The notes under the pieces are model-generated. The model was given only the letters and a program-made list of their open reading frames with translations, was not told where the DNA came from and did not search any database. Below, in pieces: positions 1,728 to 63,194 of a stretch of 64,000 nucleotides of DNA (positions are counted from its first letter, which is position 1; the number at the start of each line of letters is the position of its first letter). Source of the DNA: a virus; IMG/VR virus record IMGVR_UViG_3300037454_000146, positions 32,001 to 96,000 of that record; one strand, given 5' to 3'. The position numbers and the translations under genes were made by a program.

Positions 1728-1900
1728 CGAGAATTGAAACCTTCACAGGTATTTCTTACTGCTTCAACGTATATGCTTTTGTGGTTATAAAACACACTAC
1801 TCACAAGTTCTTGTACACTCCACAGTCGTAAATTCCCGAAATAGCCTTCGGTACATACTTATATTTTGCTTTCATTATGCAATTGTATAAGTTATTGCAT
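1728..1900 (-). ncRNA. Putative TnpB omega/right-end RNA scaffold region
   Basis: In known TnpB systems the guide RNA spans the 3' end of tnpB and the right element end. Here a 147-nt ORF-free tail follows the tnpB stop and contains the hairpin CCGAAGGCTATTTCGG followed by GAATTTACGACTGTGGAG. Extent and guide position were not determined. Confidence 0.35.
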
Positions 1901-3035
1901 CTCTAAGATTCAGACTGGCATTAAAATCCCTATCTGCTACATACCCACATTCACAGTGATAAATTCGGTCTGATAGTTGCAGCTTTTTCTTGATATGACC
2001 ACAACAATGACACGTTTTAGATGAGGGATACCATCTATCTACAATTCTCAATTCAATACCATTTTCAAAGCATTTAAATGCTAATTTAGTTCTAAACTGA
2101 TAAAACTTTTGAGATGCTACGGCTTTTGCAATATGTTTGTTTTTCATCATCCCTCTTACATTCAAATCTTCAATAGCAATATAAGATGGTTTGGTTTTCA
2201 CTATCTCGGCTATTACTTTATTAATGTAATCGGTGCGGATGTTATTTAACTTATTATAAAGCCTTTGTACTTTTAGCTTTTGTTTTTGTATATTTTTTTG
2301 AGTAGCCCCTCCTTTCTTATTTTTATCATATTTACGAGAAAGACACCGTTGTTCTCTACGCAGACGTCTTTCAATCTTTTTGATTTTTTCTGACTTGTTA
2401 ATATTTGCGTATAATTGACCATTTGACAGAATCGCGAAATCCTTTAAACCCAGATCAATTCCAACACCTTCGTTGTTGCAAACTGTAGGTTCTATAGAAG
2501 GAATATCTACGAGGACAGACACATAATATCTACCAGCTTCAACAGATATAGAGCCGCTTTTAATAATTAGTCCGCTTCGAGTTGTTGGAATATATCCTTT
2601 CTCTTTAACGCGCACCCATCCTAATGTTGGAATATTGATTCTATGTCTTTCACATCTACAATCTTTTGAATTATTCTTCACAAAATACATTGTGACATTA
2701 GATCTCCCTTTCTTCTTAAAACGAGGATAACCACTTCGATTTTTAAAAAACCTCATAAAAGCTGCATACCCATTTTCAATAGATTTTTTAACTGCTTTTG
2801 AATATACTTCTTTAATCCATTTTTTATCAGAATTGTTTGGGATATACTCATTGTTCAACCATACACTAAATTCCTTGCCCGTAACAAAGTCTTTGTTTTT
2901 AAGATATAGTTCTTTATTGTAAGCAAGATAAAAATTATAAATAAATCTACAGGTATTAATCGTTTTGTCTATTTTATTCTTTTGCTCTAATGTAGGATTG
3001 ATTTCCGTCTTAAAACTCTTAAATATTTTCATCAT
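1875..3035 (-). CDS. tnpB: TnpB RNA-guided endonuclease (RuvC-like, OrfB_IS605 with Zn ribbon)
   Basis: 386 aa. RuvC motifs are GIDLGLKDFAILSNG (D), IAIEDLNVRGM (E) and ADRDFNASLNL (D). The zinc ribbon is CHCCGH...YHCECG. N-terminus is INPTLEQKNKIDKTINTCRFIYNFYL. Confidence 0.9.
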   Translation of the reverse strand: MMKIFKSFKTEINPTLEQKNKIDKTINTCRFIYNFYLAYNKELYLKNKDFVTGKEFSVWLNNEYIPNNSDKKWIKEVYSKAVKKSIENGYAAFMRFFKNRSGYPRFKKKGRSNVTMYFVKNNSKDCRCERHRINIPTLGWVRVKEKGYIPTTRSGLIIKSGSISVEAGRYYVSVLVDIPSIEPTVCNNEGVGIDLGLKDFAILSNGQLYANINKSEKIKKIERRLRREQRCLSRKYDKNKKGGATQKNIQKQKLKVQRLYNKLNNIRTDYINKVIAEIVKTKPSYIAIEDLNVRGMMKNKHIAKAVASQKFYQFRTKLAFKCFENGIELRIVDRWYPSSKTCHCCGHIKKKLQLSDRIYHCECGYVADRDFNASLNLRDAITYTIA

Positions 3036-3147
3036 CTCCTTTTATACAGATTTTATTTATTCCGCTACCACCCCTTTCGGTCGGTTGTTTTATCTATATT
3101 AAAGGCAACAACCGTTTAGCTGTGCCTATTATTTTCAAACATTTGAG

Positions 3148-3169
3148 GGTGGCGGAATTAACCGCCACC
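3148..3169 (-). terminator. Hairpin downstream of the 3179..3598 gene (weak terminator, or flank of the IS left end)
   Basis: Perfect 8-bp stem GGTGGCGG / CCGCCACC with a 6-nt loop, 10 nt after the stop. The downstream T tract is poor. Confidence 0.4.
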
Positions 3170-3178
3170 ACGAAGGGC

Positions 3179-3598
3179 TTACTTCATTTCGGAAAGGAAA
3201 CGCTCAAACTTCTTGCGAGTGCGCTCATCAGGAGCTTTCTCCATGAGTTCTTCTATCTCGTCCATAAAATCCTCTTTTGCGTCATCTCTGCTGTAGCCAC
3301 GAGCGTATGAACCGCGTCTTGCATATGAGCCACGACCATTAGAACGACCACCTCTATTTTCCATAGAGTTGTCATAATAATATCTGCCGCCCATATAGTA
3401 GCCACTGTGTCCGTCCTCCGCCTCTATCATAGCGATAGTGGTCTTGAGAGACTTCATTGTGTGAGTGAGCTTATCAAGATACTCCAAATCGCCAGCACTC
3501 AGTTCTCCGCCAGAGCCATTAATCTTCTCGTTTGCATTTTCAAGTTCCTTTGAGACCGTCTCACAAAGGTCATACAGGGTATCTAACTTCTTATCCAT
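3179..3598 (-). CDS. Hypothetical protein with Gly/Arg/Tyr/Ser-rich low-complexity centre
   Basis: 139 aa. A helical N-terminus is followed by GYYMGGRYYYDNSMENRGGRSNGRGSYARRGSYARGYSRDD and then an acidic helical tail. An RBS is present. Confidence 0.6.
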   Translation of the reverse strand: MDKKLDTLYDLCETVSKELENANEKINGSGGELSAGDLEYLDKLTHTMKSLKTTIAMIEAEDGHSGYYMGGRYYYDNSMENRGGRSNGRGSYARRGSYARGYSRDDAKEDFMDEIEELMEKAPDERTRKKFERFLSEMK

Positions 3599-3612
3599 AC
3601 TCTACCTACCTT

Positions 3613-4101
3613 TCATCTAATTCTGCGAGTGCCAATATACTCAAAGATAATATTAGCGTTCATCACATTGATTGGTTGTGTGCTTATATTGCGTACTGAA
3701 ACACTCTGACAGCCACAAAGACTTGGTACTGCCACGATTATTGAAGCTCCAACATTATCACCTGATACATCTGAAACCAGAGGTACGGTTACTGTCATAA
3801 TGGAACTCGGATCAGTTTCACCACCTATAGCTATTGCAAGGCTGATAGGTTCAACTGTTCCTGCGGGTTCTTCGGGCAAACTGATGTTGCCGTGGAACTC
3901 CACGTTGTAAAGTGTTTCATAAATACGCCTACAGCCACAACTGCAATTAGACTGAGGTGTATTGTTTGCGAGTAAGAAGATTCCGCTTTCATCTCTATGG
4001 AATACAAGTCCCTCATTGCAAGGAACAGGGGACTCCGTAAAGATTACAGGTGCGGTAGCCTGTACTACTTGTGTAGCGTTTGCGCTGTATTCTGCTGCCA
4101 T
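3613..4101 (-). CDS. Hypothetical beta-rich protein; possible C1q/TNF-like (BclA C-terminal-like) jelly roll
   Basis: Alternating beta-strand pattern with several Cys pairs (CSCGC, CGC). The fold assignment is a guess from sequence texture only. Start placed at ATG 4101; the GTG at 4110 is an alternative. Confidence 0.45.
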   Translation of the reverse strand: MAAEYSANATQVVQATAPVIFTESPVPCNEGLVFHRDESGIFLLANNTPQSNCSCGCRRIYETLYNVEFHGNISLPEEPAGTVEPISLAIAIGGETDPSSIMTVTVPLVSDVSGDNVGASIIVAVPSLCGCQSVSVRNISTQPINVMNANIIFEYIGTRRIR

Positions 4102-4119
4102 AGTTATCACCGCCCATCA

Positions 4120-5010
4120 TTAAAATGAGCCGTTGCAACCGCAAGCGTTAGTGCAGCAGTTAGGATTCTGCACCATATAAGCAGGGATAGCACGAGGAGC
4201 TACATACTGCTCTACCTCGTTAGCGAGATTTCTCTGACCAAGCTGGATAGCCGCCGTCTGAACGTCCTGTGAAGCCTGTCCACGAGCGAACATAAGCTCT
4301 GAGCGAAGCTGTGCGATGATGTCATTCTTGCTCTCAATCTTGTCTGAGCAAAGCTGATCCTTGATGCTCTGAATACCGCTATTAAAGGCTGTGAGAAGCG
4401 CATTAGTATTCTGAGCGTCGGCGGTTCTTGTTGCACATCCTTCCTGTGCGAGTGTGTACTTTACGTCAGCTGTAGCCGCACGATTCTCGCAACAGCAAGT
4501 AGCAAGCTGAGACTGAATAGCATTTAAGCCCTGAGAATTAGCAGTCTGAGCCGCATAACTTCTTTCAAGGTTTGCTATTTCGTTGCCATAGAGCTGCTGT
4601 GCAAGTGCGTTCTGTGCACCAAAGACTGAATTGTTCACGCCGTTAAAGCCGTTAGCAAGGTCGTACCTCATATCGCCGCAGCACTGACAAAGCTGAGTGC
4701 TAAGTCCCTGTATGCCGTCACGAATAGAAGTCACATTGCTATTGAGCATCTGGTCACGGAATCCGTCGTTGATGTTCTGGCTGTTGTTGAGCCACGGATA
4801 AAGACCAAAGCCGTCTGCCATACCCATTCCCATCATTGCGCCATAACCGCCGCCAAAGCCACCAAAGCCGAAGCCGCCGTTACAGAGTGCAATAAGGAAC
4901 AGTATGCCAAGCCAACTGTCTCCGCCACCAAAGAGTCCGTTGCCACCGCCGTAACCACCAGTAGGAGATACGAGCATTGTTGTGTCCATTCCGTTTTCTG
5001 TAAGAGCCAT
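4120..5010 (-). CDS. Hypothetical Gly-rich / Cys-rich protein
   Basis: Start at MALTENG follows the RBS AAGGAGGG. The N-terminus is Gly/Phe/Met-rich and hydrophobic (GGYGGGNGLFGGG...GGFGFGGFGGGYGAMMGMGM). The centre is Q/N/A-rich and helical. Cys clusters include QLCQCCGD, ATCCCEN and the terminal NPNCCTNACGCNGSF. Confidence 0.6.
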   Translation of the reverse strand: MALTENGMDTTMLVSPTGGYGGGNGLFGGGDSWLGILFLIALCNGGFGFGGFGGGYGAMMGMGMADGFGLYPWLNNSQNINDGFRDQMLNSNVTSIRDGIQGLSTQLCQCCGDMRYDLANGFNGVNNSVFGAQNALAQQLYGNEIANLERSYAAQTANSQGLNAIQSQLATCCCENRAATADVKYTLAQEGCATRTADAQNTNALLTAFNSGIQSIKDQLCSDKIESKNDIIAQLRSELMFARGQASQDVQTAAIQLGQRNLANEVEQYVAPRAIPAYMVQNPNCCTNACGCNGSF

Positions 5011-14762: not shown

Positions 14763-17700
14763 TTATCTGCGCGGCTTGAATACCTGACTTTCGGTCAGAA
14801 CCGTCTGCATATAGGATTCCATTTGTCTCGCGAATTGCTCCGCGTTCTGTACGTTGGGGAGATTGATTACTGTGCCGTTAAATGTGACCGCGTTTGCCGT
14901 GTCGGATTTCTTGCCCAAATTCTGTGCGATTCGCATATTGCCCGTAATAGCAGAAGGTGTTAGCGCGGGAGAGTTGTGTAGCGCATTATAGAGCTTTGCC
15001 GCATCGGTCGAATTGAGCACGAGCTCGGGGCGTTGCTTTGTTCCGTGGAGCATTGCAAGTCCCGTATAAGTATTCACTCCGCCGTCTGCGTATGCGCCTA
15101 TTTTTCGTAAATATGCGTCCCAAGCCGAATTAACATCTTGATTATACTTAGACAAATCTTCTTTAACGATAGCTCTCCTAATACCATATTCGTCTACCTC
15201 TAACCTATCAAGTCTCTTTTCAATATCGTCTATGCGGTTGTCATAAGAAGAATAGTCCATACCCGCAACAGACTCATTGAGTTCATCTTGGGCTTGAGTT
15301 AATTTGCTTATGATAGTCGAATACTTTTTATAAAACGAATCAAGATTTCGAGCCATATCGCCCTCGTCACTACCCATGCTTAATGAAATATTGTAGGCTT
15401 CTTTATAAAAATCTTGAACCGAGTCTTTGGCTTCTTTCGCAACATTTTGCACCTTAGATTTGTATTCTTGCCATTTCTTAATTTCTTTATCAACGGCTGC
15501 AATCTGTTTGTTTGAGGCTTCGATACTCTTATTTACAGCCACCATTTCTACATTAGAAACACGACTGAGCTCGTCGGCATACTTATCATATTCCGTTTCG
15601 TAATCATTAAGAATATCTAAGTCCTGCTCGGCAATCTTATCACGCCAATCAGCACCAAGTATCTGCTCGGCAAGTCGCTCATCTTCTGCTTTTTGCCTTT
15701 TTTGAGTAACACCTTCCCATTGTTTCAGATATTCCTCTAAGACCTTAATATCTTGATTAGCTTGCGCCTTATCTACTTCCCGTTGAGCCTTATCAATATC
15801 TGACTTCTTAGCCTCATACTGCCAACCGCCCGCTTCTGTATAGGTACGAACTTTCTTGTTTTTAGCATTTTCGAGATTTGCAAGTTTCTCCGCGAGGTCA
15901 AGAGCTTCTTCACGCTCCTCGTTCTGCTCCTTAATTGCTTCAATCTGTTCCTTGATAGCGTTTTGAACGGTATTTGCAACCTTTTCGTAATTCTCAGTAA
16001 TTTCTTCGAGAGCGTCTTTCTGTTCCTGCAAGACCGTGAGTTGCTCCTCCATTGCTTCTTTAGAGGCTTCAATAGCAGATTTTTCAGCTTCATAACCCTC
16101 TATAACGGAATCAATTTTGTATTCCTGTGCCTTTAAAAGAGTGTCCGCTTCTTCATTGAGTTCTTTAGTAAGATTGTTAAGCGCTTGCTGACGGTCTACT
16201 GTGTCACCAAGACTTCCGTTGTAATATTGCAACACAACATTATTGCGATCCCAATCCTCTCCAATCTCAACAACTTTTTGTTCTGCCGTCTCTAACTGAT
16301 TCTGCAATTCAACGTATTGATAATAGTTAGGATTGTGAGAGTTTTTACGCATTTCAGACCACGTGTTCATTTCAGCCCGAATTGAAGCTACTTCTTCTTG
16401 CGCGGCTTTTTTAGCATTAAGCAACTCAATTTGTTTGAGCTCTATAGATTGAATTTGTTTTTGAATATAAGCATCTTTCAGGTCAATAAGTTGTTGCTCT
16501 GTGACTTTAAATTGTCCACTAATACTATCAAAACTTGCAGGACTTAAATATTTAGTGCCTAATTCGTCATCCAACTTATACAAGTCCATAAATGCATCTC
16601 TGTCAATACCGTTGCCATTAGCAAGCGTCTGAAGTGCTGACTTCATAGCGTCGATATTCTTTAACGTCGTTTTCTTTAATTCGTCATAGCTTTCATACCA
16701 AGCCTCAGACATACTTTCGATTGCTGTAATTGCACCAGAAGCTCCTGTTTCAAAGGAAGAAAACAATGAATCTACGTCTTGTTGCAAAGAAGGATAGTCT
16801 GCCCCAATTTTATTTAGCTCTTGCCTAATCTCATCAAGGCTTTGCGCCGCTTGTCTCTTTTTTATAGTGGTATTATCACCCGCAATAACGTGATTTAATT
16901 CTTTGGCTTTATCAATCAAAGAATTGTAATTATCTAATACGTCTTGTGGAACTTCAAACGAATTATAATATTTGGTTTGACGCTCCATTTGGTCGGCATC
17001 GGCTTTATCAACTTCATATTTTGCTCTTGCCGCTACGTATTGCGCCATTAAGCCCTTATAAATATCTTCGTCATATCCGTCGATTTCTTTATAAGTGTCG
17101 GCTATTTTTTTCCAGCCCTCAACTTGCTCCTCTAAAGTACCCATAACTGCAATGTCAGCTTCTTTGCCCCACATATCAGTAGCTATATGGTCAAAAGCAA
17201 CCCCTGTGTCATGGAACAGCTTTAACATATTAGACAAGTCGGTTGTTGTATCGGCTTTTATCTTTGCACGATAAAATTGAGTTGAATCAGAATCGGCAAT
17301 TCTTGCATTTTTGTCAGTACCCTCAAGCGATTCAACGGCTTGTTTGTACCTCTTTTGATTTTCGGTATCGAAAATGTAATCTTCAACCTTTTCTTTTTTT
17401 AACTGTCTTATCTTTTCAATTTCTTCCGATAATTTGCCATTAACCAAATCAATACCCTCGGCTTCTTCGCCATATTTGGATATTAATTCGCCTTGCATTG
17501 AAGATAATTCCTTTTGGATTCCAACTAAATCATCTGTAGAAGTATAAAGTTGAAGGTATCTATCCATTATTGAATCTAACGAATTGATTTCCTCGCCCAT
17601 AGCCTCTATAGATTGATGACCAGAATCGCGCAACTCTTTTGCGGCTTCAGCAGCTTTTTCTTCTGCGTGATACCACTCGTCAATTTGTTTAACAACTAAT

Positions 17701-17996
17701 GATAAAGCATAACTTAACCCAAATGATATAGCCGCATTAAGAGCTGCGGTTGCAACTTGTAATGCAATAGTCTTAGCACGAGCAACCACGAGGGATTTGA
17801 CATACCCGCCCATTGTTGCTTCTGCACCATTAAGCCCTGATAGATAATTTTTTAGTCCGACATTCGAGCCGCTAATCTCATCATCAAAAGCCTCTTGGAC
17901 ATATTTAGCTTTATTAAGAGAATAGTTATAATCGTCTAAACTCGTTGTTATCTTCTTTATATCATTGCCAAATTTACTAATGTCAGAACCGAATAT
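14763..17996 (-). CDS. Tail tape measure protein, exon 2 (3' part)
   Basis: Coiled-coil-rich product that continues the hydrophobic and helical TMP sequence (IFGSDISKFGNDIKK...). The first 8 nt AUAUUCGG pair perfectly with the intron guide sequence (P10). The ATG reported by the ORF track is the last 3 nt of the intron. Confidence 0.85.
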   Translation of the reverse strand: MFGSDISKFGNDIKKITTSLDDYNYSLNKAKYVQEAFDDEISGSNVGLKNYLSGLNGAEATMGGYVKSLVVARAKTIALQVATAALNAAISFGLSYALSLVVKQIDEWYHAEEKAAEAAKELRDSGHQSIEAMGEEINSLDSIMDRYLQLYTSTDDLVGIQKELSSMQGELISKYGEEAEGIDLVNGKLSEEIEKIRQLKKEKVEDYIFDTENQKRYKQAVESLEGTDKNARIADSDSTQFYRAKIKADTTTDLSNMLKLFHDTGVAFDHIATDMWGKEADIAVMGTLEEQVEGWKKIADTYKEIDGYDEDIYKGLMAQYVAARAKYEVDKADADQMERQTKYYNSFEVPQDVLDNYNSLIDKAKELNHVIAGDNTTIKKRQAAQSLDEIRQELNKIGADYPSLQQDVDSLFSSFETGASGAITAIESMSEAWYESYDELKKTTLKNIDAMKSALQTLANGNGIDRDAFMDLYKLDDELGTKYLSPASFDSISGQFKVTEQQLIDLKDAYIQKQIQSIELKQIELLNAKKAAQEEVASIRAEMNTWSEMRKNSHNPNYYQYVELQNQLETAEQKVVEIGEDWDRNNVVLQYYNGSLGDTVDRQQALNNLTKELNEEADTLLKAQEYKIDSVIEGYEAEKSAIEASKEAMEEQLTVLQEQKDALEEITENYEKVANTVQNAIKEQIEAIKEQNEEREEALDLAEKLANLENAKNKKVRTYTEAGGWQYEAKKSDIDKAQREVDKAQANQDIKVLEEYLKQWEGVTQKRQKAEDERLAEQILGADWRDKIAEQDLDILNDYETEYDKYADELSRVSNVEMVAVNKSIEASNKQIAAVDKEIKKWQEYKSKVQNVAKEAKDSVQDFYKEAYNISLSMGSDEGDMARNLDSFYKKYSTIISKLTQAQDELNESVAGMDYSSYDNRIDDIEKRLDRLEVDEYGIRRAIVKEDLSKYNQDVNSAWDAYLRKIGAYADGGVNTYTGLAMLHGTKQRPELVLNSTDAAKLYNALHNSPALTPSAITGNMRIAQNLGKKSDTANAVTFNGTVINLPNVQNAEQFARQMESYMQTVLTESQVFKPRR

Positions 17997-18034
17997 CATA
18001 TATTAAAAATCGTTTTTTTATTTGATTTTTAACT

Positions 18035-18063
18035 TGACAAATTAGAAAATATTTGTTATAATA
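18035..18063 (+). promoter_or_regulatory. Sigma-A type promoter for the zinc-ribbon membrane protein gene
   Basis: TTGACA, a 17-nt spacer ending in TG (TGTTATAAT, extended -10), then TATAAT, 25 nt upstream of the ATG at 18088. Confidence 0.6.
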
Positions 18064-18087
18064 TAATAGAAGAAAGGGGTTGATGTT

Positions 18088-18603
18088 ATGAAAAATAATC
18101 TTATCAACGAAATTAAAAAATATTCAATCGCAGATTTAAAGATTATATTAGACACTCAACAAGATTTATATACCATTGACGAGATGAACATTATTAGAGA
18201 TTATTATGAAAAGTGTAAAAATGAATACATATCTAAGCACACACCAAAGCTAATCCCTTGCCCTAAATGTGACGCGCAAAATGATTTTAATTCTACAACT
18301 TGCACATATTGTGGTCAACCTATAAACAACAAACCTTATTTAGATAGAATATGCAACGAAATGCTTGGGATTATAACCGCAGAAGATGTGAAAGACGACA
18401 ACGATGATTATAATGGCAAATCCCCCTCGTTCTTATTCCAGTATATAATCAGCTTCATAATACCTCTTATTGGTTTAATTGTAGGTGGCGTGTTTATTGC
18501 AAGCGATGACGAAGATAAGAACGCGTCGGGCAAGATTTGTATTGCGATTAGCATTATATCTATCATTGTAAGCACCACTCTATATGTTTTAATATCAAAA
18601 TAA
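18088..18603 (+). CDS. Zinc-ribbon membrane protein (possible superinfection-exclusion/moron product)
   Basis: 171 aa with the RBS AAAGGGG. Has a CPKC...CTYCG zinc ribbon and two C-terminal transmembrane helices (FLFQYIISFIIPLIGLIVGGVFIA; ICIAISIISIIVSTTLYVLI). It is encoded antisense to the intron. Confidence 0.7.
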   Translation: MKNNLINEIKKYSIADLKIILDTQQDLYTIDEMNIIRDYYEKCKNEYISKHTPKLIPCPKCDAQNDFNSTTCTYCGQPINNKPYLDRICNEMLGIITAEDVKDDNDDYNGKSPSFLFQYIISFIIPLIGLIVGGVFIASDDEDKNASGKICIAISIISIIVSTTLYVLISK

Positions 18604-18607
18604 CCTC

Positions 18608-18636
18608 TTGACAAAATCTCTTGCTTGTGCTATAAT
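18608..18636 (+). promoter_or_regulatory. Consensus sigma-A promoter of the type III TA operon
   Basis: TTGACA (18608-18613), 17-nt spacer, TATAAT (18631-18636). Confidence 0.7.
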
Positions 18637-18665
18637 AACCTTGCGGAGCAATCCGCACCGTGTCG

Positions 18666-18755
18666 TGTCGCTCCCGATTAGCGTCTAATAAATCATCGGA
18701 TATGAATGTTTGTCGCTCTCTGATATGCGACTAATAAATCGTCAGACTCAAATCT
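18666..18755 (+). ncRNA. Type III antitoxin RNA: two tandem 45-nt repeats
   Basis: R1 (18666-18710) is TGTCGCTCCCGATTAGCGTCTAATAAATCATCGGATATGAATGTT. R2 (18711-18755) is TGTCGCTCTCTGATATGCGACTAATAAATCGTCAGACTCAAATCT. They share TGTCGCTC and CTAATAAATC blocks and lie between the promoter and the toxin gene, as in ToxI/antiQ/CptI. Confidence 0.7.
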
Positions 18756-18756
18756 A

Positions 18757-18783
18757 AAGCCTTGCCTAATCGCAGGGCTTTAC
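18757..18783 (+). terminator. Intra-operon hairpin/terminator between antitoxin RNA and toxin gene
   Basis: AAGCCUUGC / GCAGGGCUU form 9 bp with one U.G pair. That pair is valid only on the plus-strand RNA and would be C.A on the other strand. A short U run follows. This matches the ToxIN-type layout. Confidence 0.55.
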
Positions 18784-18798
18784 TATTAGGAGTATTTT

Positions 18799-19251
18799 AT
18801 GATTACAGGTCACTTCTATTTTCTCAAGCCAGAATATACACAACAATTTGCAAATCCAAAGTTTATGAATAACAATGAACATAACCGCCCGTATTTCTGT
18901 GCCTTTACAGAGGATAGCCACATCTTTTGGCTTGTGCCGATTTCCTCTAAAGTGGATAAATTTGAACGTATTTACAACAATAAAGTTGGTCGTTATGGTA
19001 AGTGTGACACCATTGATTTCTGCCACATCCTCGGCAGAAAGAAAGCGGTTTTAATCCAGAATATGTGTCCTGTAACACAAGAGTTTATTTTGAATGAGTA
19101 TAACGATCCGCATGGTAAGCCAGTACAACTTTGTGAGAAAGTGCGCAAGCGCATTACTCATAAAGCAAAGAAAGTCCTCGTTCTTCACCGCAAAGGCGTT
19201 GACCTGTTGTTTGGGGACGTTCTAAAAATTAAAAAAGAATTATCAAAATAG
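18799..19251 (+). CDS. Type III toxin, ToxN/AbiQ/CptN-family endoribonuclease
   Basis: 150 aa with the RBS AGGAG. Family-like blocks: FYFLKPEY..., NRPYFCAF, WLVPISSKVDKF, AVLIQNMCPV (compare PLSSxK and NMIPV in ToxN/AbiQ). Preceded by repeat RNA and a terminator. Confidence 0.75.
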   Translation: MITGHFYFLKPEYTQQFANPKFMNNNEHNRPYFCAFTEDSHIFWLVPISSKVDKFERIYNNKVGRYGKCDTIDFCHILGRKKAVLIQNMCPVTQEFILNEYNDPHGKPVQLCEKVRKRITHKAKKVLVLHRKGVDLLFGDVLKIKKELSK

Positions 19252-19308
19252 TTGAATATCGTACCCCTAATTCCATTCACTGAGACTGAATTATGAGGTG
19301 ATGAAAAA

Positions 19309-19413
19309 ATGAGTTTTGTTTATAAACCCGTACACGTTAGAGCATATTATCGTATACGTTACGGCGCACTGGAATATGTGCGTGAACACTATCGCTCATA
19401 TCCCATAAGATAA
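19309..19413 (+). CDS. Possible 34-aa basic Arg/Tyr-rich peptide
   Basis: MSFVYKPVHVRAYYRIRYGALEYVREHYRSYPIR with a good RBS (GAGGTGA). However, it lies entirely inside an intron RNA domain closed by a 15-bp helix on the opposite strand, so it may be fortuitous. Confidence 0.25.
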   Translation: MSFVYKPVHVRAYYRIRYGALEYVREHYRSYPIR

Positions 19414-19848
19414 TGGGAGTTCACCAGTAATTTGGTCAGGATTCAAACTCTTTAATCCAGTGGACGGAACTAAGGGTACGATTTTTCTGCTTTCTCCACG
19501 CTTGCAGTAGCGCAAAACAATAGGGGAGAATCCTCTTTGAAACCAACGCATTTCTGCGCCTATGGACTATATCTTTGTGGTGTTACGCCACAGCTTCTTT
19601 TAGTCTCTGAACCTTCCCTTGCGGGCTTGGCTGCTGATTAACCGTTAAACAACCTTTAGCTTTTGAGCATGGGTTATCCGCATAATTTTTTCTGCTTTCG
19701 CAACATTCACGCTTGCAACCAGTGGTTGCTACGTTGTAGTCTACGCGGCTTTGGGTACTTCCAGCAATTAAAAAGCTCATTTGTGAGGGACGTATCACCC
19801 CGCAACAATTTCGTAACAATGCGAGGTTAGGCATATTCGGTTAGGTTT

Positions 19849-22362
19849 ACCTATCCCTTTGAAGCTGCCGACAGCGGCGAGCCCTGTAAGTAAAGTCGGG
19901 AGTGTCCCGAACTTGTCGATGATTTTTGTCAGTATCTCTAAAAACTCTTTGGCGGTGTCTACCACGCCCTTAATAAAGTCGCTACCTACGACCGTCTGAG
20001 CGAGGTCTTGGTATGCCGCCTTTAAGCTGTCAATAGAATACTGAATCGACTTCGCGTATTCTTCTTGCTCGCGACGTGCAGAGCCCGCAGAACCCTCGGC
20101 GGTCTTGTAAACCTTTTCAAGCAACTCGCCGTTTTCGAGGATTGCCGCACCTATATTCGACTGACGTTTGCCAAATAGCTGCTCAAGAACTGAGCTTCGC
20201 GAGAGGTCATCAAGTTGACCCCACACCTTAGAGATTTCGAGAAGAATCTGATATGTTGATTTATATGTTGTGTCGTCAAGCTGAATGTCTACGCCTGTAA
20301 GCGCAAGCATCTGCTGTCTGAGCTTCGATATATTTTCAGCCGCACCCTCTGCATCCTCACCAATCTGTTCAAGCTCTGTCTTGGTTGAACGGAGACGAAG
20401 TGATACGGTTTTGATGCCCTGTCCGACAGTGGTCGGGTCTTGGGCGACAGTGTTTGCCGTGGTGATAAGCGCTATACTTTCGCTCAGAGTGTTATTTCCA
20501 GCCGCTAACGCGGAAGCAGAGCGTTTGAGAGCCTCACCTATACCACCAGAAGATATTGCGAAGTTATTGCCGACTTCGTTAAATTTGTCTACAATTTCTA
20601 TCGAGTTCTGCGCCTCTATATTAAAGGCTTTCATCGTAGACACTAAATCTTCTGCCGCTTGTGTTTCAGTTATGCCGTCGCCGACATTCTGATAAAGTAT
20701 CGCAACCTTACCGAGCTCCTCCGCGTCGGGCAAAGATTCACCCAGTCGTGCAAAGGTGCTTGTGGCGTTGATTACGTCGGTTATGCTCGCACCGAGCTCT
20801 TTGGCGGTATTGCCCGCAGACTTCTGAAATTTTCTGAAATCTTCTTCGGTCGCTTCAGTAACCTTGCGAAGTTCAACCATTGCCGTGTCAAGCGCCGTTA
20901 CCTCGTTTACCATATCTCTAATCTGCCTCTTGACAAAATTAAAGACCATATTCGCGGTAATGTAGCTCGACATTAGTTTGAATGAATTTAAGAATTTACC
21001 CCAAGCACTTTCACCTTTGAGTCCTGCGGCTTCAGCCTCTTTACCAAAGATGCGGAACTCCTCGCCAAGATGTTTAACTTCACTCGCGCTCAAATCCGCG
21101 CCTTTCGCCATACGAGATGTCAAGTCCGCCCACTTGGAGGCGAAAGTTGTGCCGTCAGACATTTGCTTGGTAGAATCTATGGCTCTCTTATTAGCAGAAG
21201 CATACGCTTGCATATCTGCTGAGAGTTTCTTAATCTTATTAGATAAAGAAGTTTCTCGACTAAGAGCCTTTTCTTCCTTTTGAGCCGCCTTTAAACCATT
21301 GGTAATATCTTGAATGGCTTGGCTTACTTCTCCATATTTCTTACTCCATTCTAAGCCACGACCAGATTCACTTTCAATCCGCTGCAACTCTACGAGATTT
21401 TTACTTGCATTTGCAAGATTGTCACCCAAAGACGATTTCGCGGACTCATCTGATAGAGCATCTATATCTTTTCTTAACGCATTAAGCGTATTATCAAAAT
21501 TTTTAGCTTTGTTAATTGCGTTATCAAATATATTAAAGGAACTTCCAGTCGATTTTAGCGACGTTCCGATATTAGCCGCAGCCGTCTTGAGATTATCAAG
21601 TGCCTTCTGTGCGGATTCCACAGAGCCAACGCCAGACTCTAAATCAATAATGGCGTTACGAGCTGTGGTCAGCGGCTCAATTAAACCACTTTCGATTGAT
21701 TTGTGGCTTGCCTCGAAATTAGCAAGCTCTTTACTTAGTCTTGCTAAATCTTGCTGTATTTTGCCAACGCCCTTGTCAGAATAAGAACCACCAATATACT
21801 CAAACTTTTGACCAGTAGAATCAAGCAAGAAATTAAGTTCTCTAACCTCGCCAGAAGCAGCCTGTATTCTCGCAATTATCTTATTTATACTATCCGCCGA
21901 CTCTTGATCGTTATATTTGCCTGTAACGGTAACAGTACCCAATGATGATAGGCGACTTTGTATTGTAGCCATTGTACGCTCGGCGTTGATTATCCCGTCT
22001 GCATTTGTCGCAACCTTAAACGGCTCAACAAACCTACTATCTAAATCCGCAAGCGTTTTCTTTAAAGTGAGAACTTTGTTTGTTACAGTTTCGACACTCT
22101 TAGCAACATTCTCGATGTTTTGCGCCGATTGTCCAGTACCAGCCTGTATTTCTATTTTGGGAATATCTATTTTCAGTTTTTTAGATATTTCGCTAACTTG
22201 ATTTTGCAGAGTAGCCAAACTGTTTGTGTCGAGACTACAAGCTATTGATAATGCTTTGTTGGCATCCAATCGCTTTTTAACTTCTTCTAAATCTTTTTCA
22301 ATTGTACTGACGGTCTTGGGTATGTCCAAACTCGCCACTATTTCAATTCTGTTATCGTCCAT
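19849..22362 (-). CDS. Tail tape measure protein, exon 1 (5' part)
   Basis: Exon 1 is 838 codons and ends ...AAVGSFKGIG at a codon boundary. It contains a TP901-type TMP core (FNEVGNNFAISSGGIGEALKRSASALAAGNNTLSESIALITTANTVAQDPTTVGQGIKTVSLRLR). The ORF-track extension beyond 19849 (KPNRICLTSHCYEIVAG) is intron read-through. Confidence 0.85.
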
Positions 22363-31697: not shown

Positions 31698-32945
31698 TTA
31701 ATCGTTATTTCCATATCTCTCGAAGATGTCGCCATAGGGCGAAACCTTTGTGGGAGTTGCGCCAACCGAGAATTTGATTGATTCGGTCTTGGTTGACTTG
31801 TTGTCATTAAGGGCGAATGTACTCATAGCAAACTTGCCAACGAGAATCATACACTCCTTATCAAGCTGTTCAAGGTCATAATCATTGGATTTAGCCTTAA
31901 GCTCGTTGTACTCGGGCATTTCGCCAATGCGACCGTCGTACTTGGAGAAGATTTCGTTCTCTGCCTTTTCTCTCTCAGCCTTTTCAGCCGCGATCTTAAA
32001 GGGAGTAAGAATCTCAATCTGCGAATTGAGGTCAGCAATCCGAGCCTCATATTCGGCGTTCTTAATCGTAAGAGCGTCGATTGCGACAAGAGAATCGTTG
32101 TAAAGCGCCTCGTAATCTACGGGTGCTTCCTCCGCGCTGTTGGTCGTTGTCTCAGGGTCAGTTGCTTCAGATTCATTTTCATTTGAAAAAGCCTCGGGCT
32201 CTGTTCCCTCAGTGACTTCCGTCTCCTCGGATTCGTTTACAATTTCCTTGTTCTCGTCCATGTTTTCACCTTCCTCATCTCCAAAAGCAAAGACTTCGGA
32301 CATAGCCTGTTTCATTTCGTTCATCTTTATTGCGAAATCGTCCGCGCTAAAGTTAATGGGAGTTACGTCTGCGGATATAAAGCAAGGCTCTACATTCTCC
32401 TCGCGATTATCTGATTTGTAAAGCAGACAGAGAGCACTAAACTCAAAGTCGAGTACCTCAATGAAATTACTATCTTCCTCAAGAGGACGGTACTGAGCAC
32501 AGTTTACTTCCATTGACTGATTCCACCAAACTTCGTCAGAATAAATTGTCTCTTTGAGCTCGGGGTATCTGCCAGTCCATAGAATCGCCTCGCAAGTAAG
32601 ATATTCAACATCAGTGCCATACTCATTAATGGTTTCCCACTCAAAAGTATCTGCCTTTACAACGCCAAAAGGAACGCAAAGTGATTTGATAGACCAATCT
32701 TCCCAATCTATGTACATATCGTGTCCGCCAATGCGATACTCTCCATTCTCGTCCTTAAAAAGATGAGCAACGACAGGCGCATAATTTAGTGAATTGAGAT
32801 GAGCCTCAACTACATCACGGCTAAAATAAGACATATTGCGATTCTTGCCTGTAGCCATTACCTTAATCTTAACAAGCGTAAACTCGCTATTAAGCTCCTC
32901 AAGTACGGTAAATTTCGTAGATGAATTAATGCTAAACTTATCCAT
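31698..32945 (-). CDS. Scaffolding protein (possibly protease-scaffold fusion)
   Basis: 415 aa. A globular N-terminal domain is followed by a very acidic E/T/S linker and a C-terminal coiled coil (ADLNSQIEILTPFKIAAEKAEREKAENE). Follows the portal gene. Confidence 0.55.
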   Translation of the reverse strand: MDKFSINSSTKFTVLEELNSEFTLVKIKVMATGKNRNMSYFSRDVVEAHLNSLNYAPVVAHLFKDENGEYRIGGHDMYIDWEDWSIKSLCVPFGVVKADTFEWETINEYGTDVEYLTCEAILWTGRYPELKETIYSDEVWWNQSMEVNCAQYRPLEEDSNFIEVLDFEFSALCLLYKSDNREENVEPCFISADVTPINFSADDFAIKMNEMKQAMSEVFAFGDEEGENMDENKEIVNESEETEVTEGTEPEAFSNENESEATDPETTTNSAEEAPVDYEALYNDSLVAIDALTIKNAEYEARIADLNSQIEILTPFKIAAEKAEREKAENEIFSKYDGRIGEMPEYNELKAKSNDYDLEQLDKECMILVGKFAMSTFALNDNKSTKTESIKFSVGATPTKVSPYGDIFERYGNND

Positions 32946-39692: not shown

Positions 39693-40721
39693 CTATTTTA
39701 TATCAGCAATACCCTTATTTTCTTGCTGTATAATGCCATCTGCGCTAAAGTATTTACCAAAGTCATCAGCCGCAGAAGCATCGTTGTAGTGGCTAATCAT
39801 TTCTACAGACTCCCACTTGAAAAATTCTTTTATAACTTCTGACGGTATGTTCATTTGAACGAGCTCGGTACACAATGCGTGTCTAAGAGCATGAAAATAG
39901 AAAGGACAACCGAGAATCTGAGTAAACTCATCTTTCCAATTCTCAATATCTGTTCTCTGTTCCCAAACGTCGCCGCGCTTTATAACAAGAACCCACTCAC
40001 TGTCAATACCTAATTCTTCACGCTTCTTGCGCCATAAATCCATATAGGTATCAACTTTATTCATTACATACTTGTTTATCTGTTTGCCACGCACACCACG
40101 ACCTTTGGCTCTTACCTTATCTGTTTTATAAAGGCAACCAAACTCTAAGTGGTCTGTGTTAAAGTATTCCATTTTCATTTGAAGCAGTTCTGCCTTACGC
40201 ATACCTGAATAAGCAAGAATTGCAATGCAAACAGCCCTATCATATTCTTCACGTTTTACAAGTTCATCAAGTAACTTCTGCACCTGTTCTGTAGAAAGCA
40301 CAGTCTTTTCTCTGACGGCTTCATTTACAGGCGACTCAATTTTCTTGATAATACTGCGGTAATCTTCGTAACCTTCTTCCTCGTCCAATATGTTCTCGAT
40401 ATAATTGGAAAGGGAAGAAATTGTGGATTTAACTCGCCTTATCCTACGAGGACTCCATTTCCACACATTAAGAGCATGATTCTGAAATCTCGCAAAGTCA
40501 CGTTTACTAATCTTGATAAATTCCTTATTGGCGTTTTCCTCTAAATTCCAAACAAAGAATATTTCAAGGTCAGAATTATATGCAAAAATAGTCTTAGGAC
40601 TTCTGTCAATTGAAGCAAGGTAATCAAGAAAGTCTTTGCTCAACTGAACATTTTCGGGATTAATCTGCTTAATCTTTTCATCGCTTGTAATCTTGTTGTA
40701 AACCGTTGATCTGCCTTCCAT
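39693..40721 (-). CDS. int: Tyrosine recombinase / phage integrase (internal copy)
   Basis: Has an N-terminal SAM-like core-binding domain. Catalytic residues are in SGMRKAELLQM (R), FHALRHAL (H-x-x-R) and MISHYND (Y). Confidence 0.85.
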   Translation of the reverse strand: MEGRSTVYNKITSDEKIKQINPENVQLSKDFLDYLASIDRSPKTIFAYNSDLEIFFVWNLEENANKEFIKISKRDFARFQNHALNVWKWSPRRIRRVKSTISSLSNYIENILDEEEGYEDYRSIIKKIESPVNEAVREKTVLSTEQVQKLLDELVKREEYDRAVCIAILAYSGMRKAELLQMKMEYFNTDHLEFGCLYKTDKVRAKGRGVRGKQINKYVMNKVDTYMDLWRKKREELGIDSEWVLVIKRGDVWEQRTDIENWKDEFTQILGCPFYFHALRHALCTELVQMNIPSEVIKEFFKWESVEMISHYNDASAADDFGKYFSADGIIQQENKGIADIK

Positions 40722-60693: not shown

Positions 60694-61413
60694 ATGAATG
60701 CAAACGTAAACACACAGATTGACAACATGGTAGACAACAAAGAGGAAGCAATAAAACAATATTGTAATGACATAATTAACTTCATACATCAAGACGTTAG
60801 CGGACTAAAGATAGCATGGAATATGTACTTAATAGAAGGATGCAAAGATAGAAATGTCGTGTACTTTATTGAAAATGCGGAAAATCATAATGTGAAGATA
60901 GGAAAAACAACTGATTTGATAACAAGATTAAAGAGACTACAGGATTGTGCGTCGCAAATTGGCATGCCTTTACCCCACCTAAAATGCAGGTGTGTTATTT
61001 GTTGCTCTACTAAAAAAGAATGCCATGCGTTGGAAAAAGAACTGCATAATCGGTATAAAAGCAAGCGTTGTGTTGGGGAATGGTTTAATATTTCAATTGA
61101 AGAAATAAAAAAATATTTAGACAAATGTTATGCAGAGCCTATAATTATAAATAACATACTTGTATATTGTGGACTTCCAGATGTTGAAGATATGGAAATG
61201 CCATTGATTATCGGAGATGACTACAATCGTTTTGTGGATTTATTGAATTACCTTAAAACTCATTCATTTGAAGAACATAATTTTTGGATAAAGAAATACT
61301 GTGGTATAACGTTTACAGAAGCAACTAATATTTATTGTCAATATAAGAATCGGAGATTGGATGATTTTATTAAAGATTTTTACGCGCCCTATCTTCCTAA
61401 AAATGACGAATAA
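60694..61413 (+). CDS. T5orf172 (GIY-YIG-like, MUG113-type) domain protein
   Basis: VVYFIENAENHNVKIGKTTDLITRLKRLQ...ALEKELHNRYKSKRCVGEWFNI matches the T5orf172 pattern (YxI...KIGxT...RxxxLQ...GEWF). Confidence 0.7.
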   Translation: MNANVNTQIDNMVDNKEEAIKQYCNDIINFIHQDVSGLKIAWNMYLIEGCKDRNVVYFIENAENHNVKIGKTTDLITRLKRLQDCASQIGMPLPHLKCRCVICCSTKKECHALEKELHNRYKSKRCVGEWFNISIEEIKKYLDKCYAEPIIINNILVYCGLPDVEDMEMPLIIGDDYNRFVDLLNYLKTHSFEEHNFWIKKYCGITFTEATNIYCQYKNRRLDDFIKDFYAPYLPKNDE

Positions 61414-62255: not shown

Positions 62256-62267
62256 GGAGTGGTTGCT

Positions 62268-63194
62268 ATGCTAGCAAACGCAAAAGAACAGTGCAACATA
62301 ATAGAGATGTTTCCGCAGAACAAGCCCGACTTCTCAGCGATGATCCCTCAGAGCATACTGCCTGATACCGAGAAGGAACTCAATGAAGTTATCAGCATAG
62401 AGGATAACATGGCGGACTCCGAAGGAATGGACGCTATGAATGAGTCTATATTTAATGGCATGATTGACTATCTATTGGAAAAAGGCAAGACAAGAGATGC
62501 ACTGATGTACGTATTACAGGCGAATTTCGGAATACGCCACAGTGATCTCATTAAGCTAAAGCTCATAAACCTGATTGACGTTGACGGAAATTTCCGCGAT
62601 AAAGTTAATTGGTGCGAGCAGAAAACAAGCAAAACTCGCCAGTATGTAATTAACGATGCAGTCAAAGCGGCGACTATTATTTATCTCAGGACTCACGCAG
62701 ATAAGAAGTTGACCGACTTCCTGTTCACGGCAGAGGGGAAAAATAAGGGATATAAGAAGGCAACCTATAAAGACGAGAACGGAAAAGTCAAGGCACTTAG
62801 AGTGAACGGAAAATTTGTCTATGAGCGCGACGAGAACGGCAATCTTATTCCAGAACCGCTACGCAGAGATCAGGCGGAGAACACCTTGAAAGATGCTCTC
62901 ATTGCCATAGGCGTAAAGCTGAAGAACGACAGACGTTGCAAAGATGGTGAGTACAAACTAAATACGCACAGCAATCGGAAATTTTACAGCGAAAAGTTTA
63001 GTGAGGTTGCTTATGAGTTAAAGGCAAGTGGAAAGCTTAATGTGGATGCCGATGTGTTAGCATTGGTACAGCTTGATTTACGTCATAGCTCAATGCAGAC
63101 TACGATGCGATATAACCACAGTTTTGATAGAATAAAGGAGGTTGTTTGTCGGAATATGAACATCGGTCTTTCCGTCTTGGAGAGATACCTTTAA
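62268..63194 (+). CDS. Tyrosine recombinase / integrase (second copy)
   Basis: Catalytic residues are in FGIRHSDLIKL (R), NTHSNRKFY (H-x-x-R) and LRHSSMQTTMRY (R...Y). ATG 62268 lies 9 nt after AAGGAG. Confidence 0.8.
   Translation: MLANAKEQCNIIEMFPQNKPDFSAMIPQSILPDTEKELNEVISIEDNMADSEGMDAMNESIFNGMIDYLLEKGKTRDALMYVLQANFGIRHSDLIKLKLINLIDVDGNFRDKVNWCEQKTSKTRQYVINDAVKAATIIYLRTHADKKLTDFLFTAEGKNKGYKKATYKDENGKVKALRVNGKFVYERDENGNLIPEPLRRDQAENTLKDALIAIGVKLKNDRRCKDGEYKLNTHSNRKFYSEKFSEVAYELKASGKLNVDADVLALVQLDLRHSSMQTTMRYNHSFDRIKEVVCRNMNIGLSVLERYL

Follow-up and report, generated by a model that had tools for sequence, protein, structure and literature searches.

Two large minus-strand open reading frames (ORFs), both assignable to a tape measure protein, lie close together in a 64,000-nucleotide (nt) stretch of viral DNA (IMG/VR record IMGVR_UViG_3300037454_000146, positions 32,001 to 96,000; hereafter, the window). 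Are they two genes, or one gene that has been interrupted, and, if so, by what? We found that one group I intron splits one tape measure gene and that this intron houses, on the opposite strand, a CptIN type III toxin-antitoxin cassette together with other small genes. The coordinates of these features are collected in Table 1.

The gene structure follows from the two ends of the intron. As called, the upstream ORF (19795..22362) reads 17 codons into the intron before its stop at 19795, while the downstream ORF (14763..17999) takes as its ATG the three bases that close the intron (17999-17997). Exon 1, read on the minus strand, has ...UUC AAA GGG AUA GGU as its end at 19849, and exon 2 begins with AUAUUCGGUU at 17996, which places the intron between codons 838 and 839 (GGU/AUA) of a 1915-codon gene. 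Joining 19849 to 17996 produces a single ORF of that length with 0 internal stops and with the junction GLAAVGSFKGIG/IFGSDISKFGND (SFKGIG/IFG; slashes mark the splice junction). The predicted nucleotide junction after splicing is ...GGGAUAGGU/AUAUUCGGUUCU. An initial annotation, made from the sequence without database searches, had read the two ORFs as parts of one tape measure protein with an in-frame product of 838 + 1077 amino acids (aa); the join, the homologues that read through it, and the PhageMin_Tail match in exon 1 all agree with that proposal. No Shine-Dalgarno sequence was found upstream of exon 2, and the ATG that precedes it is not conserved, the intron ending in UUG instead of AUG in two related loci (L001 and L146). 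An independent Logan assembly (L160) was 100% identical to the window over 6516 nt and reproduced the intron base for base.

Homologues of the tape measure protein are interrupted at the same residue. A 500-aa query centered on the predicted junction was run against 5.8 billion proteins, and we examined the best 120 clusters. Alignments stopped exactly at residue 838 in 75 of these 120 clusters and ended within residues 835-842 in 85 of them. Past the end of the alignment, the interrupted homologues carried tails of 5-64 aa that were mutually unrelated (KPNRICL..., RDKMFSL..., ELINQF..., KLTEYAYLR...), which points to gene callers reading into an intron. Seventeen of the 120 clusters extended beyond residue 838. 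The five clusters that were checked by residue (P0002, P0004, P0106, P0075, and P0074) crossed the junction uninterrupted, with sequences such as SFNKIG/FFK, SFKNIG/VFS, SFKNVG/LF, and SFKGIG/FVK. Likewise, the tape measure protein of a prophage in an Eubacteriales metagenome-assembled genome (MAG; L133) aligned as one high-scoring segment pair spanning residues 2-1556. An uninterrupted junction of this kind was what the initial annotation had suggested looking for in related phages, and its expectation that a pipeline would report two separate genes was also borne out: gene callers do so here and in about 100 homologue clusters.

The splice sites are defined by a 13-nt stretch, CCGAAUAUGCCUA at 19840-19828 on the minus strand, that is complementary to both exons. 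With the end of exon 1 it forms P1, in which U19849.G is the last pair, at the 5' splice site. The adjoining bases, CCGAAUAU (19840-19833), pair perfectly with AUAUUCGG, the first 8 nt of exon 2 (17996-17989), to form P10. Each of these elements had been identified beforehand, as had the terminal G of the intron, and each is present as described, except that P10 in the window is longer than the 8 bp first recognized, extending to 10 bp (AACCGAAUAU / AUAUUCGGUU).

To this single sequence we could add eight related loci with an intron at the same codon (L001, L002, L009/L136, L138, L144, L145, L146, and L148), which were retrieved via interrupted tape-measure homologues and via the cargo protein. 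The related introns are 959-1852 nt long; all of them start after (A/U)AGGU and contain ..CC(G/A)AAUAUGCCUA. In seven of the eight, UG closes the intron and AUAUU(C/U)GG comes next; the contig of the remaining one (L138) stops before the 3' end. The P1 pairs that were scored, including U.G, are invariant in 9/9 sequences. In the relatives P10 measures 8-11 bp, the longest being that of L144 (11 bp). At one position, the guide sequence has G in the five introns whose exon 2 has C and A in the three whose exon 2 has U, a match in 8/8 cases. The exon base that is tracked in this way is a synonymous UUC/UUU change in a Phe codon. That the guide sequence follows a synonymous exon change in every case indicates selection for P10, i.e., for splicing, and its coevolution with the exons suggests long vertical residence of the intron. 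Given this tracking, the missing Shine-Dalgarno sequence, and the UUG of L001 and L146, we saw no sign of separate genes with independent starts, the arrangement that the initial annotation had named as speaking against an intron.

The catalytic core is equally well supported. It matches the Rfam group I intron family over the full-length model (positions 1-253) and, at 60.7 bits, exceeds the gathering score of 50 (E = 6e-13 when the whole window is searched; E = 2e-14 locally), a positive outcome for the covariance-model search that had been recommended. The strings CAGCAGCCAAGCCCGCAAGGG, GGUUCAGAGACUAAAAGAAGCUGUGGCGUAACACCACAAAGAUAUAGUCC, and GCGCAGAAAUGCGU, from which a core had originally been recognized by eye, are all present, and the RF00028 alignment assigns them to the same helices, P4'/P6, P7-P3'-P8-P7', and P9. 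We then aligned the 5' regions of nine introns, that of the window and those of its eight relatives (alignment A1). From this alignment RNAalifold found P1, P2, P4, P5, P6, P7, P8, and P9 unaided, with 27 of 70 pairs compensatory. With the P3 pseudoknot added, there were 74 pairs, 93.7% of cells paired, and 30 compensatory pairs, a value that 0/500 shuffles reached; in slid controls, 30-40% of cells were paired. Four of the six P3 pairs are compensatory, and P7 contains a swap between C-G and G-C in four sequences. Selection therefore acts on the ribozyme fold. Taken with the covariance-model score and the 8-10-bp P10, this covariation is well outside what chance would produce. An Rfam scan of the gap in L001 returned no match, though this locus clearly belongs to the intron family; its P7 departs from the consensus by a compensatory C-G to G-C swap.

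Directly 3' of P9, the introns share a conserved 60-nt element, in which 15 pairs are supported with 99% of cells paired and 6 pairs compensatory. The element is 97% identical between the window and L002 and had no match in Rfam. Because it includes an invariant G.U pair, the structure belongs to the intron-sense strand, and it is probably a peripheral domain of the ribozyme. Read on the opposite strand, the P8 hairpin (19575-19593, plus strand) scored as an intrinsic terminator with an 8-bp stem followed by CTTCTTTTAG; it lies downstream of the block of antisense genes and might end the cargo transcripts. In the 3' tail of the intron, the only conserved stretch (18027-18076) is accounted for by a plus-strand promoter.

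Table 1. Features of the interrupted tape measure gene and of its intron (positions in the window)
Feature	Position	Strand	Description
Tape measure exon 1	19849..22362	-	838 codons; from the ORF list; Pfam PhageMin_Tail, E = 2.5e-20
P1 and internal guide sequence	19828..19853	-	Exon UAGGU (19853-19849) pairs with GCCUA (19832-19828)
Whole group I intron	17997..19848	-	1852 nt; begins after U19849; terminal G at 17997
Ribozyme core, P2 to P9	19544..19830	-	Rfam RF00028
Conserved 60-nt element directly 3' of P9	19484..19543	-	Three helices, including a pseudoknot
~240-nt module	19243..19483		Closed by ~20-bp inverted repeat; minimum free energy, -80 kcal/mol
34-aa Arg/Tyr-rich ORF in ~240-nt module	19309-19413	+	Ribosome-binding site GAGGTGA
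cptN, type III toxin (endoribonuclease)	18799..19251	+	150 aa; antisense to intron
Hairpin between repeats and cptN	18755..18782	+	AAAGCCUUGC-N6-GCAGGGCUUU; 10-11-bp inverted repeat
cptI, candidate RNA antitoxin	18667..18757	+	Two 45-46-nt direct repeats
cptIN promoter	18608..18636	+	TTGACA-17-TATAAT; extended -10 TG; 12/12 match
ORF171, 171-aa orphan ORF	18088..18603	+	Zinc ribbon; antisense to intron
ORF171 promoter	18034..18062	+	TTGACA-17-TATAAT with TG; 12/12 match
Tape measure exon 2	14763..17996	-	1077 codons plus stop

The intron interior, ~1.5 kb or about 80% of the intron, is gene cargo on the opposite strand. From about position 147 to 57,000, the long ORFs of the window lie on the minus strand, bar five plus-strand ORFs that fall within or overlap longer minus-strand ORFs. 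Within that span, two intron ORFs are the only free-standing ones on the plus strand. One of them encodes CptN, which matches the NCBIfam CptIN equivalog NF047359 with 167.8 bits (cutoff, 90; E = 1.4e-49) and the CptN of Eubacterium rectale (PDB 4RMO) with E = 7e-21. The active-site motif P-x-S-S-[K/R] is kept: PISSK aligns with PLSSR of 4RMO, with Lys in place of the Arg of the conserved RNase triad Ser-Ser/Thr-Arg. The equivalent of Tyr104 is kept as well. Matches of the 150-aa ORF to Pfam ToxN and PADLOC AbiQ were weak and below threshold and would not by themselves have been enough for an assignment, which the NCBIfam and PDB matches decided.

Upstream of cptN, the candidate antitoxin gene cptI consists of repeats beginning at 18667 and 18712. 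Tandem Repeats Finder reported no antitoxin repeats in the cassette because the repeat has only two, diverged copies; they were found by a direct-repeat search and by direct reading. Across 13 distinct cassettes, the H-type pseudoknots of cptI comprise 19 pairs, 91.5% paired and 8 of them compensatory, compared with 19-45% paired in slid controls. The first repeat of the window has one U.U mismatch in S1. The hairpin that separates the repeats from cptN is followed by UUUA, with a ribosome-binding site (AGGAG) 3' of it, and occupies the position that the attenuating terminator has in toxin-antitoxin loci of type III; a consensus terminator scan of the window did not list it. A small hairpin also lies between the cptIN promoter and the first repeat. 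Promoter, repeats, hairpin, and ribosome-binding site were intact in 20/20 cassettes. Furthermore, the cptIN locus of the window (repeats of 45-46 nt, 2 copies, and a toxin of 150 aa) falls inside the published ranges for CptIN, namely, repeats of 40-48 nt, 1.9-3.4 copies, and a mean toxin length of 149 aa (PMC3401426). It resembles the E. rectale system in having a homologous toxin, two ~45-nt repeats, and the order promoter, repeats, hairpin, toxin. The layout of E. rectale CptI is also common to the window repeats: S1, S2 5' strand, AUAU, S1', A-rich loop, S2' (PMC4627078). The cassette is thus a complete CptIN locus. In this phage, CptN would act as the toxin and cptI as its antitoxin.

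The other free-standing ORF, ORF171, is an orphan that may encode a zinc-ribbon membrane protein. Its match to Pfam Zn_ribbon_3 (E = 2e-5) is below the cutoff, and reading of its sequence revealed two C-terminal hydrophobic segments. It has no match in PHROGs, and in the 5.8 billion proteins only the ORF itself was found. The ~240-nt module is present in the window, L136, L144, and L146 and missing from L001, L002, L145, and L148. By reading of the sequences, L144 and L146 have conserved the 34-aa peptide that it could encode, apart from an in-frame indel of 3 codons; the peptide belongs to no Pfam or NCBIfam family. The module may be mobile in its own right, as a miniature element, or may constitute a third cargo gene.

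None of these genes resembles an endonuclease. Considering the classes LAGLIDADG, GIY-YIG, HNH, His-Cys box, PD-(D/E)xK, and EDxHD, we found no endonuclease domain in the two large cargo ORFs or the 34-aa ORF (Pfam and NCBIfam), nor in seven sense-strand ORFs of the intron (Pfam). In PHROGs, neither of the two large cargo ORFs fell into a family with a known function. The remnant of a sense-strand homing endonuclease was considered and rejected, there being no such domain in any sense-strand ORF. Thus, the initial annotation was right to take the 1852 nt as an intron with the sites given above, and it passed over both the opposite-strand cargo, CptIN included, and the lack of a homing endonuclease.

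Antisense CptN recurs at the same place in the related introns (L001, L002/3/4, L009/L136, L138, L144, L145, L146, and L148). These proteins score 126-166 bits against the NCBIfam model (L001, L002, and L003) or show 97-99% identity (L009, L136, and L138). A second small antisense ORF, variable in sequence, is found at the position of ORF171 in 6 of the 7 fully readable relatives; L001 has none, and L138 is cut off. Divergence is uneven along the locus. Exon 1 of the window and that of L002 are 72% identical, compared with 93.5% over 659 nt for the block of cptN, cptI, and promoter; the ribozyme cores of the two, which represent two subtypes in A1, gave no BLAST alignment. The cassette is also found without an intron (L010/L141, L011/L143, L012, L013/L155, L133, L140, L147, and L149), in antisense orientation upstream of where an uninterrupted tape measure gene starts. 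In the three such loci for which ORFs were listed (L010, L133, and L143), it sits between two tail genes, in a gap of ~640 nt that is too short to hold a ribozyme as well. The CptN proteins of these intergenic cassettes have identities of 61-83%, and the repeats of L133 are identical to those of the window. Since the cassette occurs with and without the intron, cptIN moves independently of it, as a moron, and the intron interior appears to be one harmless landing place for the cassette.

Searches for the intron by its guide sequence returned little. A 14-nt pattern was too unspecific in viral contigs, giving 119 or more chance matches. A specific 23-nt pattern matched only the L009 contig among viral contigs and was absent from 185,579 representative genomes; hence, no cultured lysogen was identified.

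A second group of introns may occupy the same site. Four more distant relatives of ~160 kb (L005-L008), which are SPbeta-like by their Pfam matches to YomN/U/V/W/X, have ~0.9-kb inserts at the same tape-measure codon (L005 8927-9800 and the equivalent gaps of L006, L007, and L008). An Rfam scan of these gaps gave no match. Inserts of this type nevertheless contain a P1 with U.G (AUCGGU/GCCGAU, GUCGGU/GCCGAC, and GUGGGU/GCUCAC), a P10-like pairing, and the same start of exon 2. Each also holds one small antisense ORF, zinc-ribbon or lipoprotein-like, and by reading of the sequence the one in L005 has its own TTGACA-17-TATAAT promoter. The inserts may represent a second, unrecognized intron lineage, and introns at this site seem as a rule to carry antisense cargo.

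Other introns were seen in the tail modules of these phages. The tape measure of L009, the closest relative (91% aa identity over residues 1-646), has an additional insertion of ~1.3 kb between residues 646 and 647 (3036-4328, minus strand). This insertion contains a same-strand ORF of 309 aa with a weak match to Vsr-like nucleases; it may be a conventional intron with an endonuclease, absent from the window. Further group I introns, with 59-76 bits, occur in the tail modules of L002 (2316-2640 and 3357-4274), L007 (15854-16234), and L011 (4879-5200), and the extra intron of L002 adjoins a same-strand NUMOD1/I-HmuI-like endonuclease. The related phages are intron-rich.

How would a phage tolerate such a cargo in a structural gene? 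From the canonical group I mechanism, the family membership of the ribozyme, and the selection on P1, P10, and core, we infer that the tape measure pre-mRNA is spliced. The first ~305 nt would fold as ribozyme P1-P9, followed by the 60-nt pseudoknotted extension. Exogenous G would attack after U19849, held by the U.G pair of P1, and exon 2 would be held through its first 8-10 nt by pairing with neighboring bases of the guide sequence. Exchange of the terminal G17997 and ligation of the exons would then give ...SFKGIG-IFGSD.... On this model, the intron is a phenotypically silent harbor, in that splicing would remove accessory genes ("morons") from the late mRNA of an essential structural gene. 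Its own sigma-70 promoters would drive the cargo at times when the late operon is off, as in a lysogen; this timing is suggested by the fact that two perfect host-type promoters face away from the late operon. In the lysogen, CptIN could serve as an addiction module, an abortive-infection module, or both. Its role is the weakest step of the model, and we rank prophage addiction and superinfection defense about equally. Taken as a whole, a tape-measure group I intron that acts as a phenotypically silent harbor for antisense, CptIN-bearing cargo is, in our judgment, highly probable.

Several observations weigh against this model. The 3' splice site is ~1.55 kb away from the catalytic core, and reading of the intron sequences found no conserved helix that would bring it near. 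Late transcription has to pass the cassette hairpins in antisense, and one of these scores as a weak minus-strand terminator (18657-18642). Moreover, Asp81 and Ser85, which specify the base in E. rectale CptN, are not conserved here. In the one published test, the CptIN systems of E. rectale and Ruminococcus torques gave no abortive infection in Escherichia coli challenged with six coliphages, and the only published CptIN phenotype is plasmid stabilization (PMC3401426, PMC4627078), which leaves a role in defense conjectural. Finally, splicing, cargo transcription, and toxin and antitoxin activity are all read from sequence.

These points invite other readings of the locus. The ribozyme might be a decayed relic, with two separate tape measure polypeptides being produced (of 855 aa and of 1078 aa) and the DNA between them serving as an intergenic moron site. 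Such a view would accommodate the two genes that callers report here and in about 100 homologue clusters, the in-frame ATG that happens to precede exon 2, and the truly intergenic cptIN cassettes of other phages. It would leave the 8/8 tracking of a synonymous exon-2 change without an explanation, because P10 would have no function, and the 30 compensatory pairs spread over all core helices show a fold under selection. Nor does it fit an exon 2 that has no Shine-Dalgarno sequence and whose ATG is TTG in L001 and L146, tails past residue 838 that are unrelated among relatives, or uninterrupted homologues that are colinear over the junction. We therefore regard it as very improbable. The intron might instead be functional and its cargo inert, hitchhiking DNA in which a toxin-antitoxin remnant is decaying without a role. 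Short, truncated cptN genes are often found in bacterial genomes (PMC3401426), and among the relatives the cptN of L003 is truncated at its C terminus (136 aa; profile positions 1-137 of 150). In addition, the second cargo gene differs in almost every intron, and ORF171 is an orphan. Decay is, however, hard to reconcile with a full-length cptN ORF (profile positions 1-150) in the window and at least 6 relatives, with intact expression elements in 20 cassettes, and with compensatory changes in the cptI pseudoknot. Similarly, identities of 93-99% between the cassettes of otherwise divergent phages imply recent spread or strong constraint, and inert cargo seems to us improbable.

We also considered that the cargo serves the lytic cycle, either with CptI as a decoy against abortive infection by a host CptN or with plentiful late pre-mRNA and excised intron RNA, each containing an exact CptI complement, titrating the antitoxin and thereby freeing CptN. 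The antisense orientation puts anti-cptI and anti-cptN sequence into every late tape-measure transcript, and phage pseudo-antitoxins that defeat ToxIN are established, as in phage PhiTE. Lachnospiraceae and Eubacterium hosts commonly carry CptIN loci (PMC3401426). However, a decoy would need cptI only, whereas the toxin gene is always kept intact, and CptN is reportedly neutralized only by its cognate CptI (PMC4627078). The intergenic cassettes are equally antisense, so the orientation may merely avoid read-through from the late operon. A lytic role is accordingly unlikely in our view. Comparably speculative is a broader scenario in which the tape-measure introns of clostridial SPbeta-like phages have turned from selfish homing elements into splicing-protected harbors for antisense accessory genes under host-type promoters, the CptIN version being, in addition, a late-lytic toxin switch. 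Pre-mRNA and excised intron, made in large amounts by late transcription and each including an exact CptI complement, would strip the antitoxin from CptN and so lead to RNA cleavage; the trigger would be late lytic entry by the prophage itself or an inducing superinfection. If true, toxin activation would be coupled to the splicing of a structural-gene intron, but we think this scenario unlikely, too. The silent harbor for antisense cargo thus remains our preferred reading.

Group I introns in phage tape measure and other structural genes are already known. Those of Bacillus phage Moonbeam, prophages of the B. cereus group, cluster J mycobacteriophages, and Herelleviridae likewise interrupt a late gene at sites defined by P1 and P10. 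Those introns are ORF-less or carry a homing endonuclease on the same strand, whereas the one described here has no endonuclease and three opposite-strand genes. Across 50,697 phage genomes, the only BLAST matches were to the intron cores of Herelleviridae and related phages (Brochothrix phage A9, Lactococcus AM1-like phages, and Staphylococcus and Enterococcus phages) and of Enterocloster phage CB457P1. In the last of these, the core is closely followed by an I-TevI-like gene on the same strand, and the window intron has none. A closer parallel in architecture is provided by IStrons (CdISt1-type), in which a group I ribozyme is combined with IS200/IS605: both have a 5' ribozyme and >1 kb of nonendonuclease cargo after P9. 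In IStrons, the distant 3' splice site is still used. Their cargo is a transposon that mobilizes the whole element, in contrast to an antisense toxin-antitoxin cassette and small genes that have their own promoters and no transposase. Group I introns of nuclear rDNA (at position L2066 and others) also encode a protein on the opposite strand, in antisense homing endonuclease genes (PMC9548176); these introns are eukaryotic, however, and their antisense gene is still a homing endonuclease that provides mobility.

The location of the cassette is also unusual for CptIN. All of the originally described cptIN loci (33/33) were chromosomal and none (0) was on a phage (PMC3401426), whereas the present locus is phage-borne and intronic. 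We detected no CptN in the 50,697 deposited phage genomes. A 2025 survey stated that type III systems on phages were unreported save for one toxIN prophage and its own tenpN virus hits (PMC12283969). In its own sigma-70 promoter and terminator, its orientation against the late operon, and its mosaic distribution, the cargo resembles prophage morons. A classical moron lies between genes, whereas this cargo lies inside an essential gene, where it would be harmless only through RNA splicing. We found no paper describing a group I intron with toxin-antitoxin, abortive-infection, or defense cargo, our coverage of the literature being incomplete. An endonuclease-less phage intron that houses an antisense toxin-antitoxin system thus appears to be new.

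These findings have consequences for annotation and for how such introns are viewed. One tape measure gene is annotated as two in about a hundred protein clusters, including many from gut and rumen phage contigs, and the splice rule ..GGU / intron ..UG / AUAUUYGG.. lets these split annotations be repaired. Bacterial and phage group I introns are usually seen as either lacking ORFs or serving to carry homing endonucleases; the present lineage persists with no endonuclease. Its interior appears to exchange opposite-strand cargo horizontally, which would make it a previously unconsidered niche for accessory and defense genes within essential genes. For CptIN, which is without a demonstrated natural role, a phage-borne, recurrent, and recently spreading cassette offers a setting for addiction, superinfection exclusion, or counterdefense.

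Based on Yom-family Pfam matches and on the Clostridia and Lachnospiraceae MAG hosts of its relatives, we judge the phage to be a large SPbeta-like phage of Clostridia. The window contains two tyrosine recombinase (Phage_integrase) genes (39693-40721, minus strand; 62259-63194, plus strand). Together with the prophage and MAG contexts of the relatives, they are compatible with a temperate lifestyle, and lysogeny of this phage is putative. In L005-L008, the tape measure gene has a tyrosine recombinase gene immediately upstream, which is an unusual place for one. Elsewhere in the window, a GIY-YIG/T5orf172 protein is encoded at 60694-61413 (plus strand). A TnpB/IS605 OrfB gene of 386 aa (1875-3035, minus strand) has Pfam matches to OrfB_IS605, Cas12f1-like TNB, and HTH_OrfB_IS605. 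Directly 3' of it is a RAGATH-18 RNA (1756-1826, minus strand; 73.4 bits against a gathering score of 44.9), and the pair looks like the remnant of a TnpB-plus-guide-RNA transposon inside the phage.

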